DNA from: Candidatus Limnocylindria bacterium | Lineage (GTDB): Bacteria; Chloroflexota; Limnocylindria; P2-11E | DNA: 64,000 nt | NCBI GenBank assembly: GCA_038207785.1 | Contig: JBBQZK010000001.1 | Span: forward strand, 9,405-73,404 | Direction: 5' to 3' | In this document: piece by piece, positions 8,720-62,657 of the stretch | Layout of the letters: each line of letters begins with the position of its first letter | Numbering within the stretch: the stretch's first letter is position 1 | The notes under the pieces: generated by a model | What the model was told of the DNA's origin: nothing | The model's database searches: none | The model's input: the letters and a program-made list of their open reading frames with translations, nothing else | Translations under genes and position numbers: made by a program

Positions 8720-8773
8720 TCCAGCTCCCCCCTTACTGCGCGAACGCGGACGACCGGTGGCGTGGGTAGAACG

Positions 8774-10480
8774 CTAGACGGCCTCCCACTGTGCCGCGGT
8801 GGTCCAAAGCTGCGGGCTGACCTTGATCGGCGGGATCTTGACGGTGTTCCGAACGACGAGCAGGTCCTGGATCCGCCAGAGGTGGATGAATGGCACGTCC
8901 CCCTCGACGATGCTCTGGATCTCTCCGTAGATGCGTTTGATGTCCTTCTCCTCGGTCGCCTTCGTGCCCTGGACGAACAGGTCGTCGACCTTGGGGTTGG
9001 CGTACCCGACGGTGTCCGGGCTGGGAGGCGGGGTGTGGAGGAAGTTCGCCTGGAGGTCGATACGGGGATCGATCGTGAAGTTGCCCCAGCCTTGGAAGAA
9101 CCCTTCGTAGCCCCCGACCACGCCCTTGGAGATGATGGTGCCGAAGTCGAGCTGCTGGATCTGGAACGGGATGCCCATGGTCTTGAAATACGGCTGCAGC
9201 GCGGCCGCCCAAGGGGCAGTGCGCGGTGAGCACATGTAGGTCCACTCGAAGCGCTTGCCATTCTTCACCCGGACCCCGTCGGCGCCCATGGTCCACCCTG
9301 CCGCGTCGAGCAGCTGTTTGGCCTTGGCCGGGTCGTACTCATATTTGGGGGCCTGGGGGTTGTAGATGTAGGACAGCGGCGACACGAGCGAATAATTCGG
9401 TTCGGCCGTCCCGGCGAAGAGGGCGTCGGTGATCGCCTTCCGATCGGGGGTATGGGCCATCGCCTCACGGACATTGCGGTCGGAGAACAGGACATTGGTG
9501 GGGTCGAGCTGCATGTACCAAGCCGTGGTGCCCGGCGACCGCTGCGTCGTGTAGTTCGTCTTGTCCTTGTCGAACTCTCCGAACTGATCGGCGAGGACGG
9601 ACGCGACCTGCACGCTGCCCGCGCGGAGCTCGGCGATGCCCGTCGCCGCATCGGGGATGCCGCGGGAGATGATCGTGTCGAGCCGGGGACGCCCCGCGAA
9701 GTGGTCCTTGAACGCGGTGAGCACGACCCCCTCGCCGTTCTTCCAGTCGCTGACCATGAACGGTCCGGTCAGGATCGGCTTGCGCGCGAATGCCGACTTG
9801 GGATGGTCGGCGACGGGGATCGTCGAAAGGATGTGCTTGGGCACCATGATCGAGCTCGCGACGGTGACGAGGAAGATCGCCGACAGATTCTTCAGCTTGA
9901 AGACCACGGTGTCGTCCCCGCTGGTGGTGATCCCTGCGATCGTCGTCGCCTTCTTGTCCTTGAAGTCCTGCGCTCCGACGATGTTGGCGAGATTGGATGG
10001 CAGGCCGCCGGGCCGATCCGGATGGGACAGCGTCTCGTACGTGTACTTGATGTCCTCGAGCGTGAACGGATTGCCGTCGTGCCACTTGACGCCCTTACGG
10101 ACCTTGAACGTATAGGTCGTTCCGTCCGCGGACACCGTCCACGACTCGGCCAGGTCCGGCGTTGGGCTCATTTCCGGGAGCTGGACCCTGACCAGGCGAT
10201 TCGCCGTGGCGAAGAAGATGTTCCCCGCGTAAGCGTTCCCATTGCCGTAGGGCAAGAGCGTGTTCGGCTCCTGCCCCTGGTTGATGATGAGCGTGCCGCC
10301 GATCTTGGGCGCCTTCGTTCCGCCGGCCCCGGGCGCCGCGCTGCCGCTGGTGGTCGGTCCGGTCGTCGCCGGCTGGCAGGCGGCCAGCGCCGCGAGCGCC
10401 GCTGCGCTCAAGCCGGTCGCCGCGATGAGCTCTCTGCGCGTGAGGACCGTCTGCCCTGAAGGACCCTTCGCTCGCCTCAT
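8774..10480 (-). CDS. ABC transporter substrate-binding protein, family 5 (peptide/nickel), Tat/lipoprotein signal
   Basis: It has an RR motif and an ...AALAALAAC lipobox. It is 568 aa, and its start has a GGAGG RBS. Confidence 0.85.
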   Translation of the reverse strand: MRRAKGPSGQTVLTRRELIAATGLSAAALAALAACQPATTGPTTSGSAAPGAGGTKAPKIGGTLIINQGQEPNTLLPYGNGNAYAGNIFFATANRLVRVQLPEMSPTPDLAESWTVSADGTTYTFKVRKGVKWHDGNPFTLEDIKYTYETLSHPDRPGGLPSNLANIVGAQDFKDKKATTIAGITTSGDDTVVFKLKNLSAIFLVTVASSIMVPKHILSTIPVADHPKSAFARKPILTGPFMVSDWKNGEGVVLTAFKDHFAGRPRLDTIISRGIPDAATGIAELRAGSVQVASVLADQFGEFDKDKTNYTTQRSPGTTAWYMQLDPTNVLFSDRNVREAMAHTPDRKAITDALFAGTAEPNYSLVSPLSYIYNPQAPKYEYDPAKAKQLLDAAGWTMGADGVRVKNGKRFEWTYMCSPRTAPWAAALQPYFKTMGIPFQIQQLDFGTIISKGVVGGYEGFFQGWGNFTIDPRIDLQANFLHTPPPSPDTVGYANPKVDDLFVQGTKATEEKDIKRIYGEIQSIVEGDVPFIHLWRIQDLLVVRNTVKIPPIKVSPQLWTTAAQWEAV

Positions 10481-58463: not shown

Positions 58464-58570
58464 ATCTGTTCTCCTTCGCTCGGACGCCGGTCGTGGCGTA
58501 CGACAGCCACGGTCGCATTCCCCATGCGGAGAATCATGAACGGGCCCTAAGAAACCGGCGGAATGCGGGC

Positions 58571-58588
58571 GTTCTTAGCCTGTTCTTA
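58571..58588 (+). promoter_or_regulatory. direct repeat GTTCTTA-N4-GTTCTTA, with 11-bp periodicity, upstream of the response-regulator gene
   Basis: Tandem direct repeats at one helical turn are typical of OmpR-family binding sites; this could be an autoregulatory site. Confidence 0.35.
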
Positions 58589-58612
58589 ACGCGCAGTTCC
58601 TAGACTCGCTCC

Positions 58613-59290
58613 ATGAACGTCCTCCTGGTCGAGGACGACCCCGCGGTACGCGGCGCGGTGGAGCGGGCGCTCCGCCACGCCGGGCACCAGCCGGCTGTCG
58701 CGGCGGATGGCGTTCGCGCGCTGGAGCAGGCGACGGCCGTCCTGTACGACGCGGTGGTCCTCGACCTCGGCCTTCCGGGTCTCGACGGGCTCGAGGTCTG
58801 CCGCCGGCTGCGAGCGGTCGGCAATCAGGTGCCGGTCCTGATGTTGACCGCGCGTGCCGCGGTGGCGGAGCGCGTGTCGGGCCTGGACGCGGGCGCCGAT
58901 GACTATCTGGTGAAGCCCTTCGCGCTCGATGAGCTGCTCGCCCGGCTGCGCGCATTCGAGCGGCGCGCGCCGACGAGCGGGCAGACCCGCGGCGAGCTGC
59001 GATTCACGGATCTCGCGCTCGATCGCGACGCGATGACCTGCCGGCGCGGGGCTCACGAGATCCCGCTGTCGCGGACCGAGTACCAGCTCCTCGAGCTGCT
59101 CATGGCGAACCAGGGCAAGGTGCTGAGCCGCGATGTCATCTTCGACACGGTGTGGGGCTACGACTTCGGCCCCGAGTCCAATTCGCTGGACGTGTACGTC
59201 GGGTATCTCCGCCGCAAGCTCGAGGTGGATGGCGGCTCGCGGATCATCCACACCGTCCGTGGGGTGGGCTACGTGATGCGCGAGTCATGA
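58613..59290 (+). CDS. OmpR-family response regulator
   Basis: It has a receiver domain (DD...D...K) and a winged-helix output domain (…VYVGYLRRKLE…). Confidence 0.9.
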   Translation: MNVLLVEDDPAVRGAVERALRHAGHQPAVAADGVRALEQATAVLYDAVVLDLGLPGLDGLEVCRRLRAVGNQVPVLMLTARAAVAERVSGLDAGADDYLVKPFALDELLARLRAFERRAPTSGQTRGELRFTDLALDRDAMTCRRGAHEIPLSRTEYQLLELLMANQGKVLSRDVIFDTVWGYDFGPESNSLDVYVGYLRRKLEVDGGSRIIHTVRGVGYVMRES

Positions 59291-60624
59291 GCTTCCGCCT
59301 GCGGATCGCGCTGCTCGCAGCGGGGGCGGTCGCCGTCGCCGTCATCGGGGCAGCGGTGCTCATGTACATCGTCGTCGAGACCCAGCTGGTCAACCAGTTC
59401 AACACCACGCTCGTCGACGCCGCGAATGCGGTGCGGTCCCCCGGCGGCGATCACGGTCCAGGCGGCCGCTTTCCTGGAGCGCCGCAGGGAACGGTGTCCG
59501 GCCGCTCGGATGTCGCTGCGCAGATCGTCAACAGCACCACCGGTACGGTGAGCCGCTCAGATGCGCAGCCGGTCGTGGCGCTCGTCACGCCGGACGTCCT
59601 CGCGGTCGCGAGCGGCTCGACGCCCGCTTACTCGTTCGATACGACCGTCGATGGATCGCGGCTGCGCGTATACGTGGCACCCGCGGGGCGCGGCACCGCG
59701 GTGGAGGTCTGGGGCCCGCTCGATCCCATCGAGAGCGCGCTCGCTGCAACGCGCGTCCGGCTCGCCGTGGTCGCGCTGGGGGGCGTCTTGTTAGCGGCGG
59801 CACTGGGCACCGTCGTCGCGCGCGCCGCTATCGCGCCGGTCGAACGGCTGACGTCCGTGGTCGAGGATGTCGCGCGCACGCGCGATCTGTCCCGCCGGGT
59901 GGCCGCGACCGGACACGACGAGCTCAGCCGCCTCGCCGCGAGCTTCAACGAGATGCTCGGCGCGCTCGAGGTCTCGCTGCGGCAGCAGCGCCAGCTCGTG
60001 GCGGACGCGTCGCACGAGCTCCGCACCCCGCTCACGAGCCTCCGCACCAACCTCGAGCTCCTCGCGCGCGGCCATCCGACGGACGAGGCCGAGCGTCATC
60101 TGGTGCTGACCGATCTCGTCGCGCAGATGGAGCGCCTCTCTACGCTCGTCGCCGACCTCATCGATCTGGCGCGCGACGAGGAGGCGGCAGTGCCGGTCGA
60201 AGAGCTGCAGCTCGATGAGCTCGTCGTGGACGCCCTCGCCGGCGTGCGGGGCCGCTACCCGGCGGTGACGTTCCAGCTATCGAGCCAGCCGACCGTGGTC
60301 ACCGGCGCGCGGTCGCGGATCTCGCGCGCCATCACGAACCTGCTCGACAACGCGGCGAAGTGGAGCCCACCGGGCGGTACGGTCGAAGTCAGCGTGGCGG
60401 CCGGCGAGGTCGTCGTGCGTGATCACGGACCCGGGATCGCGCCCGAGGACGCGCCGCATGTCTTCGACCGATTCTGGCGCGCGAGCAGCGCGCGAGGCAT
60501 GCCCGGCTCCGGCCTCGGCCTCTCGATCGTGAAGGACGTCGCCGAAAAGCACGGCGGCAGCGTCACCCTCGACCCAGCCCCCGGCGGTGGCGCCCGCTTC
60601 AGGCTCCGACTGGCGGGTGCCTAG
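59287..60624 (+). CDS. sensor histidine kinase (2 TM, HAMP, HisKA, HATPase_c)
   Basis: It has the H-box ...ADASHELRTPLTSL... and G-boxes. It is ATGA-coupled to the response regulator. The ORF-track start at 59152 is over-extended. Confidence 0.85.
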   Translation: MSFRLRIALLAAGAVAVAVIGAAVLMYIVVETQLVNQFNTTLVDAANAVRSPGGDHGPGGRFPGAPQGTVSGRSDVAAQIVNSTTGTVSRSDAQPVVALVTPDVLAVASGSTPAYSFDTTVDGSRLRVYVAPAGRGTAVEVWGPLDPIESALAATRVRLAVVALGGVLLAAALGTVVARAAIAPVERLTSVVEDVARTRDLSRRVAATGHDELSRLAASFNEMLGALEVSLRQQRQLVADASHELRTPLTSLRTNLELLARGHPTDEAERHLVLTDLVAQMERLSTLVADLIDLARDEEAAVPVEELQLDELVVDALAGVRGRYPAVTFQLSSQPTVVTGARSRISRAITNLLDNAAKWSPPGGTVEVSVAAGEVVVRDHGPGIAPEDAPHVFDRFWRASSARGMPGSGLGLSIVKDVAEKHGGSVTLDPAPGGGARFRLRLAGA

Positions 60625-60921
60625 ATCTACCATCGAACGACGGTCATCAATGCCCGCACCGTCCGTTGCAGCCACCGGGCCGACATCAAGCCGGTGTCTC
60701 CCGATGGCGACGGCTGCGCCGAATGTCTCGCCGTGGGCGACGAGTGGGTCCACCTGCGGATGTGCCTGACCTGTGGCGCCGTCCGGTGCTGCGACTCATC
60801 ACCGAATCAGCACGCCAGCAGACATGCGGACACGTCGGGACATCCGCTCGTGCGGTCGATGGAGCCGGGTGAAGGCTGGATGTGGTGCTACGTGGACGAG
60901 ATCTTCATAGAAGTCGCTTGA
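60625..60921 (+). CDS. UBP-type zinc-finger (zf-UBP) protein, with a start-codon problem
   Basis: It has ...RCSHRADIKPVSPDGDGCAECLAVGDEWVHLRMCLTCGAVRCCDSSPNQHASRHADTSGHPLVRSMEPGEGWMWCY.... The first Cys-His ligand pair lies upstream of the only in-frame GTG at 60694. No ATG, GTG or TTG lies between the histidine-kinase stop (60622-24) and that Cys codon. Confidence 0.55.
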   Translation: MYHRTTVINARTVRCSHRADIKPVSPDGDGCAECLAVGDEWVHLRMCLTCGAVRCCDSSPNQHASRHADTSGHPLVRSMEPGEGWMWCYVDEIFIEVA

Positions 60922-60930
60922 ATGGGGCTC

Positions 60931-60959
60931 GCTCGGGGCCGGCACAGCCGGGCCCGAGC
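60931..60959. terminator. 13-bp GC-rich hairpin (one mismatch, ACA loop) between convergent genes
   Basis: The arms are GCTCGGGGCCGGC and GCCGGGCCCGAGC. There is no clear U-tract. Confidence 0.3.
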
Positions 60960-60979
60960 GTACGCGCGGAGGAGGACGG

Positions 60980-61123
60980 CTAGTGCTGCCCCATCGTCAC
61001 GATGAGCACGATGATCAGGATCGACACAAGGAAGATCGGTATCGCCAGCGCCGCGAAGATGATGTGGTCCTGCTGCCGGTACTGCGGATCGGGCTTGTGC
61101 GGCGGGGTCCCATGAGCGGCCAT
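60980..61123 (-). CDS. hypothetical 47-aa single-TM protein
   Basis: It reads MAAHGTPPHKPDPQYRQQDHIIFAALAIPIFLVSILIIVLIVTMGQH. No RBS was evident. Confidence 0.3.
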   Translation of the reverse strand: MAAHGTPPHKPDPQYRQQDHIIFAALAIPIFLVSILIIVLIVTMGQH

Positions 61124-61151: not shown

Positions 61152-61412
61152 GTGGAGATCGCGCTCCTCATCTGGTTCGCCGTCGGTGCTGGCATCGCCG
61201 CAGGCGCATTCATCATCGCCCGATCCACGATCCAGATCGCGTCCGTTGCGTACAACGTCCTCGAGAAGCGCCTCGATCCACGCGTGGCCACGCGTCAAAC
61301 GATCCTGCTGACGCTCGCTGCGATCGCGGCTCTCGTCGCGACCTCGATCATCGCCGGCATCGCGACCCTGGCGATGCTCCAGGGATTGATCGATGCGAGC
61401 GGCCTGAGCTAG
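61152..61412 (+). CDS. hypothetical small membrane protein (2 TM)
   Basis: It uses a GTG start and is followed by a strong hairpin terminator. Confidence 0.35.
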   Translation: MEIALLIWFAVGAGIAAGAFIIARSTIQIASVAYNVLEKRLDPRVATRQTILLTLAAIAALVATSIIAGIATLAMLQGLIDASGLS

Positions 61413-61615: not shown

Positions 61616-62128
61616 CTAGCGCTCGGTCTCGCCGGTCGAGCCCTGGCCCGGCTTGCCCTGGCCACCCTGCGTTCCGCTCTGGCCACCCTGGCCACCGTGC
61701 GATCCGCTCTGGCCACCCTGGCCAACCTTCGTTCCGCTCTCGCCGCCCTGGCCACCCTGCTGCGAACCGCCCTGACCGCCCTGGCCACCGTGCGATCCGC
61801 TCTGGCCACCCTGGCCACCGTGCGATCCGCTCTGGCCACCCTGCGATCCGCTCTGGCCACCCTGGCCACCCTGCGATCCGCTCTGGCCACCCTGGCCACC
61901 GTGCGATCCGCTCTGGCCACCCTGCGTTCCGCTCTGGCCACCCTGACCAACCTTCGTTCCGCTCTGGCCGCCCTGGCCACCCTGCTGCGAACCGCCCTGA
62001 CCGCCCTGACGGCCGGCCTGGTCCTGCGGCTGGCCCTGCTTGCCCTGCTCGCCGTGCTTACCCTGCTGACCTTGGCCACCCTGGGATCCACCCTGGCTTC
62101 CTTGTCCCTGCTTGTCCTTGTCCTGCAT
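61616..62128 (-). CDS. Gly/Gln/Ser-rich low-complexity (GGQ-repeat) intrinsically disordered protein
   Basis: It reads MQDKDKQGQGSQGGSQGGQGQQGKHGEQGKQ...(QGGQSGSHGG)n...GETER. It has a strong AAGGAGG RBS. The ORF-track start is over-extended. Confidence 0.6.
   Translation of the reverse strand: MQDKDKQGQGSQGGSQGGQGQQGKHGEQGKQGQPQDQAGRQGGQGGSQQGGQGGQSGTKVGQGGQSGTQGGQSGSHGGQGGQSGSQGGQGGQSGSQGGQSGSHGGQGGQSGSHGGQGGQGGSQQGGQGGESGTKVGQGGQSGSHGGQGGQSGTQGGQGKPGQGSTGETER
61640..62100. repeat. coding minisatellite with 24/30-bp periodicity (unit about CCGCTCTGGCCACCCTGGCCACCGTGCGAT) and a ~210-bp higher-order duplication
   Basis: Directly visible tandem repeats. The block ccaaccttcgttccgctct.gccgccctggccaccctgctgcgaaccgccctgaccgccctg occurs twice. 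Confidence 0.7.
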
Positions 62129-62216
62129 TGCGTGGCCTCCTTCGTATTTACCGGCGAGCCGGCTCCTTCTATCGCCGCAGAGGCCGTGCCAGAGACCGTA
62201 CGCGGCCGCCTGGCCG

Positions 62217-62657
62217 TCACCCGTTACGAACGGCCGAGCCGCGCCCACGCGGTCGGTCGTCCAGCCGCGCGACAAGCGCGCGGACCCGGCGCTCGATGCC
62301 GTCACGGACAAGCCGGAAGGCCGCAAGCCGCTCCTCGTCCGGACCGCGCGCGAGCGCGGGGTCGGCGAGCTTCCACCGCAGCTGTACCGCGGCGCCGGGC
62401 GGGATCGGACAGTTCGCATCGCACACCGTGACGCAGATGTCGAAGGGTCCGGCGACGTCGTCCACGCACGTGCTGCGCTGGGCCCTGATATCGATCCCCA
62501 CCTCGGCCATCGCGCGGATCGCGAGCGGATGGAGCTCGCTCGCGACCGTGCCCGCGCTCTCGGCGACGAACCGATCGCCGCCGAGCGCGCGGAGGAATGC
62601 TTCGGCCATCTGCGAGCGGGCGGAGTTGTGCCCGCAGAGGAACAGCACGCGCGTCAC
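62217..62657 (-). CDS. arsC: LMW-PTP-family arsenate reductase (thioredoxin-coupled ArsC type) / low-molecular-weight phosphatase
   Basis: It has the P-loop LFLCGHNSARSQMAEA (CX5R) plus downstream ...VTVCDANCP... cysteines in the ArsC positions. Confidence 0.65.
   Translation of the reverse strand: MTRVLFLCGHNSARSQMAEAFLRALGGDRFVAESAGTVASELHPLAIRAMAEVGIDIRAQRSTCVDDVAGPFDICVTVCDANCPIPPGAAVQLRWKLADPALARGPDEERLAAFRLVRDGIERRVRALVARLDDRPRGRGSAVRNG

Follow-up and report, generated by a model that had tools for sequence, protein, structure and literature searches.

In a 64,000-nucleotide (nt) stretch of DNA from a Candidatus Limnocylindria bacterium of the Chloroflexota (positions 9,405 to 73,404 of contig JBBQZK010000001.1, GenBank assembly GCA_038207785.1; hereafter, the window), a gene for a UBP-type zinc-finger protein (zf-UBP) directly follows a histidine kinase gene and lacks a normal start codon. 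By comparison with its relatives, this gene is intact and is neither a product of error nor a dead gene. We consider it probable that an ACG codon at positions 60640 to 60642 serves as its initiation codon, whatever the route by which the ribosome is delivered there. The fuller proposal, namely, that the intact gene is expressed and starts at this ACG on a leaderless mRNA, stands in our judgment at roughly even chances. The features discussed below are located in Table 1.

Table 1. Positions of features in the window (position 1 is the first letter of the stretch)
Feature	Position	Strand	Basis or remark
Response-regulator gene heading the response regulator-histidine kinase operon: TAGACT (58601-06), 6 nt, ATG 58613	58601..58615	+	
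Histidine kinase gene (HAMP, HisKA, HATPase_c)	59287..60624	+	Pfam matches
-10-like hexamer TACCAT, first T 12 nt 5' of ACG	60628..60633	+	Conserved distance
Spacer CGAACG, 6 nt, hexamer to ACG	60634..60639	+	Length fixed in all loci
ACG, proposed non-canonical initiation codon; predicted transcription start if the mRNA is leaderless	60640..60642	+	Comparison
Proposed zf-UBP coding sequence of 93 codons, (M/T)VINARTVRCSH...IEVA, stop TGA 60919-21	60640..60921	+	Pfam, PDB, periodicity
Incidental ATG in another frame, within AAT GCC (Asn-Ala), not a start	60650..60652	+	Comparison
Cys-Ser-His, first zinc-ligand pair (C-x-H), 5' of first canonical start	60667..60675	+	Conserved, aligned
GTG (Val of KPVSP), first in-frame canonical start, not conserved as start	60694..60696	+	Codon comparison
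Convergent 47-50 aa ORF, hydrophobic C-terminal half	60980-61123	-	No Pfam match
85-87 aa hydrophobic ORF	61152-61412	+	No Pfam match
LMWPc-type phosphatase or ArsC-like gene	62217-62657	-	

The kinase ends in ...ARFRLRLAGA followed by a TAG stop at positions 60622 to 60624, and both this tail and the stop position are kept in the orthologues L001, L002, L083, L084, and L175. As a first-pass annotation of the window had noted, the zf-UBP open reading frame (ORF) follows this stop in the same frame, and no ATG, GTG, or TTG lies in frame between the TAG and the C-x-H pair. The coordinates agree with the codons themselves, which read ATC TAC CAT CGA ACG ACG GTC ATC AAT GCC CGC ACC GTC CGT and continue with TGC (60667), AGC, and CAC (60673). 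The GTG at 60694, nine codons past the cysteine of C-x-H, is the first in-frame canonical start; it had earlier been called the only in-frame GTG, and this fails, with more GTG and ATG codons lying farther 3'. Elsewhere in the family, a canonical start is found in every locus with a visible upstream stop, usually 3 to 5 codons ahead of the cysteine, in a tally that leaves out the ACG clade described below and the CTG case of L142. Because these other homologues have canonical starts, the missing start in this clade exceeds what chance would give, at least by this comparison.

L142 is a more distant zf-UBP homologue (about 62% identity) in which a strong Shine-Dalgarno (SD) sequence (GAGAGGAGG) precedes a CTG (about positions 1280 to 1300), with no canonical start in the 85 open codons 5' of it. 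Its orthologues L111 and L134 have ATG. The CTG would be either another non-canonical start that arose independently in the family or a single-contig error.

The ORF from 60625 to 60921 encodes a zf-UBP domain (Pfam PF02148; score 52.2 bits, cut-off 22.7 bits, E = 7e-14), and the closest solved relative of its product is PDB 2IDA, a stand-alone bacterial protein (E = 1e-31 over residues 7 to 91). The Pfam model starts at the CAEC motif, and the C-x-H pair falls 5' of it. We assign the pair to the domain because it is kept in 161 of 162 distinct homologue loci, which bears out its earlier description as a conserved pair 5' of the GTG, and because it aligns with "GCRH" of 2IDA and "CPH" of HDAC6. 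In HDAC6, this motif serves as a zinc ligand. The full ligand set is present (C15, H17, C31, C34, H43, C47, C50, C55/C56, H63, H67, H73, and C88, numbered on the translation of 60625 to 60918), at positions with either no variation or at least 90% conservation in our alignment (A1). From the homology to 2IDA, we infer zinc binding and the fold of the product. It resembles the stand-alone bacterial UBP-type zinc-finger proteins in being about 90 amino acids (aa) long and in carrying all Cys and His ligand positions, including the N-terminal C-x-H. It departs from them in having nine residues, instead of the usual 3 to 5, ahead of the cysteine and in its start codon.

We gathered junction DNA from genome and metagenome collections and from the contigs encoding oddly called proteins. 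Uncultured Chloroflexota, labeled in the genome collection as Chloroflexota or Candidatus Limnocylindria, are the nearest relatives. Twelve distinct loci, the window among them, are mutually 76 to 91% identical in nucleotides, and all 12 share a common layout consisting of a TAnnAT hexamer, exactly 6 nt, an ACG, and a conserved N-terminus (Table 2). In sister loci, the same codon is GTG (L004, L163, L169, and L170) or ATG (L005), and the products of these ATG or GTG (RTG) loci begin MVINAR..., compared with (T)VINAR... in the window. A neighbor-joining tree, the topology of which we take as an indication only, places the ACG loci as one clade nested among the RTG loci. A single ATG-to-ACG transition that was then retained would be the simplest history.

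Table 2. Hexamer, spacer (lowercase), and first codon at the junctions
Hexamer	Spacer	First codon	Loci
TACCAT	cgaacg	ACG	Window, L001, L003
TACCAT	cgggcg	ACG	L002
TACCAT	cgagcg	ACG	L081, L082, L161, L175
TACCAT	cgatcc	ACG	L185
TAGGAT	ttacgt	ACG	L083
TAGCAT	cgatcg	ACG	L084
TAGCAT	ttgggg	ACG	L162
TAGCAT	tgtctg	GTG	L004 (sister)
TAGGAT	cggtcg	ATG	L005 (sister)
TAGCAT	ccggag	GTG	L163 (sister)
TACGAT	cgaccc	GTG	L169 (sister)
TAGCAT	ccggcg	GTG	L170-174 (sister)

Under one explanation, the layout would reflect a sequencing or assembly error or a recent pseudogene, so that the true start is an ATG (that at 60650 brought into frame, or one replacing the ACG) or the gene is dead; the first-pass annotation had likewise proposed a 1-nt indel arising from sequencing error or fresh pseudogenization. 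ACG does differ from ATG by a single T/C, and the window is one base shorter than L001 just past the kinase stop (CCTAGATC in the window, CCTGAGACC in L001). Against this, the start-less layout recurs in 12 loci from independent samples and assemblies, different studies, and different assemblers, one of them (L175) found identical in ten samples. The ATG at 60650 is not conserved, and the first 40 codons are under strong purifying selection, as detailed below. The 1-nt difference is polymorphic in the clade and lies 5' of the ACG; it exchanges the kinase stop between TGA and TAG and leaves both proteins unaffected. Error or decay thus strikes us as highly improbable. The tolerance of a frame-changing indel at this place further argues that translation of the zf-UBP protein does not include this stretch.

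Of the options that the first-pass annotation had listed, non-canonical initiation is the one favored by the comparison, and the codon would be the ACG at the position of the sister ATG or GTG. This codon is unchanged in 12 of 12 loci even though ACC is the preferred threonine codon; of 25 fully conserved residues that have four or more possible codons, only 1 is encoded by a single codon across these 12 loci. Judged by this codon usage, the ACG is constrained beyond coding for threonine. Variable sites, counted in eight of the ACG loci, are distributed 7/5/30 over the three codon positions in codons 1 to 40 after the ACG and 2/0/7 in the nine codons that lead from the ACG to the cysteine; 5' of the ACG they number 16/14/15 and show no periodicity. 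Pairwise codon differences after the ACG comprise 278 synonymous versus 120 non-synonymous. On these counts, the N-terminal 40 codons are under strong purifying selection, and the region from the ACG onward must be translated. The first canonical start in L002, L003, L081, and L083 is the Met of LRMC, 41 codons past the ACG, and a start there would lose two ligand pairs; initiation of homologues at the internal GTG, past the first Cys-His pair, had earlier been named as a refuting outcome and finds no footing in these loci. At L083, only GAT TTA CGT separates the in-frame stop from the ACG, which is the sole near-cognate codon before the cysteine. Precedents for such a start exist. In Escherichia coli, initiation at ACG is detectable and gives an N-terminal Met (bioRxiv 10.1101/063800), and the tape-measure gene of mycobacteriophage Corndog has ACG where its relatives have ATG, with peptides beginning right after the ACG (PMC4351075).

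Other candidate starts were tried and rejected. Where the window has GTG 60694, 11 of the 12 ACG loci encode the valine by GTC or GTT, and a start there drops C-x-H. The ATG at 60650, for which the first-pass annotation had correctly given another frame, opens a reading of MPAPSV... that stops after 39 codons; its role as a real start does not hold up, the ATG being a by-product of AAT-GCC, for which most relatives have AAC GCN and no ATG. Near-cognate initiation at ATC 60646, or at CTG at this Ile/Leu position, was also considered, and this codon is not a conserved alternative start because L081 and L083 have CTC. Finally, a GTG overlapping the kinase stop (L001, P0001) might have been the true start of the family. 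The 1-nt indel polymorphism shifts frames among the loci at this point, and L083 and L084 have just 3 codons from stop to ACG.

No separate start would be needed if read-through or frameshifting joined the kinase and zf-UBP in a fusion protein, the remaining option of the first-pass annotation. The upstream stop is indeed a TAG in the zf-UBP frame in the window and seven other loci, but in L001, L082, L161, and L185 it is a TGA in a different frame, so that neither frame (frame 0 in eight loci, frame 2 in four) nor linker is conserved. A fusion would therefore require two different recoding events in one clade. The linker from stop to ACG comprises 3 or 5 codons, and its protein sequence lacks conservation (IYHRT, TYHRA, DLR, HRS, and HLG). 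In L003, L161, and L185, the upstream ORF is not the kinase but a mini-ORF, and the RTG relatives are plainly separate genes, with L004 out of frame and L165 beside a divergent neighbor. The in-frame TAG is accounted for by geometry: in some loci it makes up the 5' half of the hexamer and lies 12 nt from the start, and in others it stands 6 nt before the hexamer. As a conserved mechanism, read-through or frameshift coupling is in our view scarcely credible.

The ACG stands at a fixed distance from the hexamer, as do the sister starts: TAnnAT, 6 nt, and the first codon recur in 17 loci, namely, the 12 ACG loci and L004, L005, L163, L169, and L170. Within the ACG clade, T-12, A-11, A-8, and T-7 are invariant together with the A, C, and G of the ACG, while positions -10 and -9 and all six spacer positions vary, such that varying sites make up 0 of 7 predicted to be constrained versus 8 of 8 predicted to be free (Fisher p = 1.6e-4, uncorrected for shared ancestry). 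Going by these aligned positions, the hexamer varies in the manner of a -10 promoter element. TANNNT about 12 bp 5' of the start marks leaderless genes in bacteria, most prominently in high-GC genomes (PMC3160421). Within the window, TAnnnT followed by 6 nt and ATG or GTG occurs six times, and 5 of these 6 instances open long ORFs rich in G and C at third codon positions (GC3-rich; background, 0.32). One is the response-regulator gene heading the operon with the kinase, which leaves no room for a leader between TAGACT and ATG, and this layout, with ATG or GTG, is found in every orthologous locus examined (L002 to L005, L083, L163, and L175). At the level of sequence layout, this shows that the lineage uses leaderless-type geometry, normally with a canonical start. 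The zf-UBP gene of L165 has a divergent gene beginning 27 nt 5' of it, so that its own start must be promoter-proximal and essentially leaderless. A search of the window for other genes with the hexamer, 6 nt, and ACG found none; the ACG thus appears to be specific to this gene and not a genome-wide habit.

Further observations concern the same geometry. Just 5' of the promoter-like element of the response-regulator gene, within 58568 to 58615, lies a direct repeat of TTCTTA (58572-77 and 58583-88), possibly a site bound by the regulator itself. At position 8764 on the minus strand, TAGCGT, 6 nt, and CAC open a 332-codon GC3-rich ORF with 3 open codons 5' and its first canonical start 15 codons in, probably a promoter with a short leader. 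In L167 and L168 (1597 to 1600), zf-UBP follows a gene with a guanylate/adenylate-cyclase domain through a GTGA start/stop overlap, with no hexamer. Because of this overlap arrangement, the family seems to have switched between its own promoter and classical translational coupling.

We propose that members of the zf-UBP family bear their own -10-type hexamer, TAnnAT, exactly 6 nt before the first codon, and that this hexamer would act as an active promoter. Transcript and coding sequence would share their first base, and the resulting leaderless mRNA would have the A of the ACG as its 5' end. In the clade of the window, the ACG would have arisen by one T-to-C change, most simply in an ATG, and would have persisted as the remainder of the gene diverged to its present range of identity. 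The initiator tRNA would read the ACG with one central mismatch, presumably inefficiently, and this low efficiency could keep the protein scarce or tie its synthesis to conditions that relax start-codon fidelity. For leaderless delivery of the ACG start, taken as a separate question, we see about as much for as against.

Several points weigh against this proposal, foremost the codon itself. In a 64-codon screen in Mycobacterium smegmatis, the leaderless position works with ATG and GTG only (PMC4633059), near-cognate codons cause a drastic fall at leaderless positions in Caulobacter (PMC8459731), and reconstituted leaderless systems, both E. coli and mitochondrial, employ ACG as a negative control (PMC11775629). 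Leaderless initiation is thus the most start-codon-selective mode where it has been tested. No -35 element was recognized, and a full sigma-70 consensus scan, which needs a -35 as well, found no promoter at the junction, although such a scan is uninformative for high-GC promoters consisting of a -10 only. Nine of the 12 ACG loci have an identical TACCAT, and in the remaining three the TA of the hexamer is also that of the kinase stop; owing to this shared hexamer and stop overlap, the independent evidence for constraint on the hexamer is thinner than the raw counts. The tree has weak bootstrap support on so short a gene, and rooting may also affect the values. Lastly, a co-directional upstream ORF ends 9, 15, or 16 nt 5' of the ACG in all 12 ACG loci, a layout that suits reinitiation equally well.

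By termination-reinitiation, the gene would be translated mainly from read-through transcripts of the upstream ORF; ribosomes would end at this upstream stop, remain on the message, and restart at the ACG, which would still be the start codon. Leadered initiation does accept more start codons than leaderless initiation (PMC4633059; PMC8459731). Where an insertion parts the kinase from zf-UBP (L003, L161, and L185), an ORF of 26 to 38 aa with a kinase-like tail ends at the same place, and its differences between L003 and L161, read by eye from the sequences, are mostly synonymous. The stop distance is also looser in the RTG clade: L004 has 22 nt, L005 has about 50 nt, and the neighbor in L165 is divergent. 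Reinitiation nevertheless leaves unexplained the invariance of T, A, A, and T in the hexamer and the fixed 6 nt, since the stop-to-ACG distance takes three values and the frame two. There is no SD-like sequence at the junction except AGGA within the TAGGAT of L083, ACG is a poor start in every bacterial context tested, and the mini-ORF may be a mere duplication remnant. In relation to translational coupling and reinitiation by 70S scanning (PMC9031893), the zf-UBP junction is alike in the end of an upstream ORF shortly before the proposed start in every ACG locus; it departs from classical coupling in that the stop distance and frame vary while the distance from hexamer to ACG is fixed and in that the restart codon is non-canonical. 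We regard reinitiation as unlikely to be the route, if clearly the strongest competitor to leaderless delivery, and the two routes could coexist.

The mini-ORF (L003, 2872-2970; L161, about 215-279; L185, about 635-751) encodes a hydrophobic peptide, MTSFELLILGYQVLLYAGLR[VL]RLVAA, and sits between the kinase and zf-UBP, with a tail that duplicates the kinase C-terminus (...RLRLVAA and stop). The near-exclusively synonymous differences between L003 and L161 suggest that it is translated; the copy in L185 carries an internal frameshift. The hexamer itself was also considered as an SD sequence and rejected, as AGGA occurs only in TAGGAT, and TACCAT, TAGCAT, and TACGAT are unlike an SD.

Invariance of the ACG would also be seen if C-to-U editing made it an AUG in the RNA, a fixed editing site being equally bound to stay unchanged, or if another lineage-specific initiation device were at work. 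Editing of ACG to AUG by C-to-U conversion occurs in plant organelles, and to our knowledge no such editing of mRNA start codons has been described in bacteria. Beyond the invariance, nothing speaks for it, and no conserved RNA structure surrounds the site: an Rfam search of the junction gave noise matches only (E of at least 0.45, far under gathering scores), and RNAalifold leaves the junction unpaired with a covariation term of -0.61. We give editing or a comparable device very little credence.

Returning to the leaderless reading of the ACG, the zf-UBP gene shares with the leaderless genes of Actinobacteria and Deinococcus-Thermus (Zheng et al. 2011, PMC3160421; Shell et al. 2015, PMC4633059) a TAnnAT hexamer beginning with T at -12, a fixed 6-nt spacer, a purine as first base, the absence of an SD, and the recurrence of the same layout at other genes of the genome. 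The class is defined by a 5'-terminal AUG or GUG and by TANNNT with its first T about 12 nt upstream and no SD; the second is present at the junction as TACCAT, 6 nt, and ACG, whereas the window and 11 other loci have ACG as their first codon. Because of this codon, the gene is not a standard member of the leaderless class, though it may still work like one. Tested leaderless systems use AUG, or AUG and GUG, only, and the zf-UBP case is known from sequence. AUU is the natural non-canonical start codon of infC. The zf-UBP gene is like infC and the Corndog gene in having a near-cognate codon at the position of its relatives' ATG, with no canonical start from the upstream stop to the N-terminus, whether conserved or observed. 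The Corndog case concerns a single phage group, is leadered, and is backed by peptides, whereas the zf-UBP ACG is fixed in a diverged clade and stands at a leaderless-type position.

The surroundings of the gene show recurring features. In the acidobacterial-type loci L108, L111, L115, L134, L142, and L150, zf-UBP lies directly 3' of an ORF with a histidine-kinase-like C-terminus (...GDTRFQVRVPI..., read by eye). Such kinase-zf-UBP pairs seem to occur repeatedly in different phyla, and this recurrence hints at a functional link with two-component signaling. The 3' neighborhood, made up of the convergent ORF, the hydrophobic ORF, and the phosphatase or ArsC-like gene of Table 1, is kept in nearly all related loci, and an MFS transporter is often next. 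A GC-rich inverted repeat (about 60925 to 60960) lies between the convergent genes. Farther on, a tandem-repeat array (61656-61985 and 62029-62067) has periods of 21, 30, 51, and 81 nt, up to 11.5 copies, and 75 to 90% matches; it lies inside a low-complexity Gly/Gln/Ser-rich minus-strand ORF (61616-62419) and yields long ORFs on both strands. The repeat segment is absent from the syntenic locus L163.

Gene callers cut the ACG-type genes to 50 to 54 aa or to 77 aa (P0121, P0122, P0123, and P0013). P0121, a call of 50 to 54 aa, has 77 members on 14 contigs, and because such truncated calls are common, we take the ACG state to be widespread in nature. Other miscalls include the upstream-extended P0001 and P0003 and P0008, which begins at a TTG abutting the hexamer. 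Given this systematic miscalling, many N-termini in protein databases are wrong for this family, and the comparative test used here can recover genes with non-canonical starts in uncultured lineages.

The zf-UBP case falls within known kinds, namely, leaderless genes and non-canonical starts, and is not a new kind of system. If the ACG is the start, it represents a naturally selected, clade-wide use of a codon that models deem essentially non-functional in bacteria, and the native junction of about 60 nt offers a means of probing start-codon relaxation in leaderless or reinitiating ribosomes. We advance only tentatively, and with slightly more doubt than confidence, the claim that this soil Chloroflexota clade (Limnocylindria-like) naturally initiates leaderless mRNA at a 5'-terminal ACG, selected across species-level divergence. 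If true, bacterial leaderless initiation would not be universally limited to AUG and GUG, and the clade would provide a natural, conserved, and easily testable exception to that rule. The ACG might then provide a kinase-associated zinc-finger protein with a built-in switch that keeps output low or senses fidelity.

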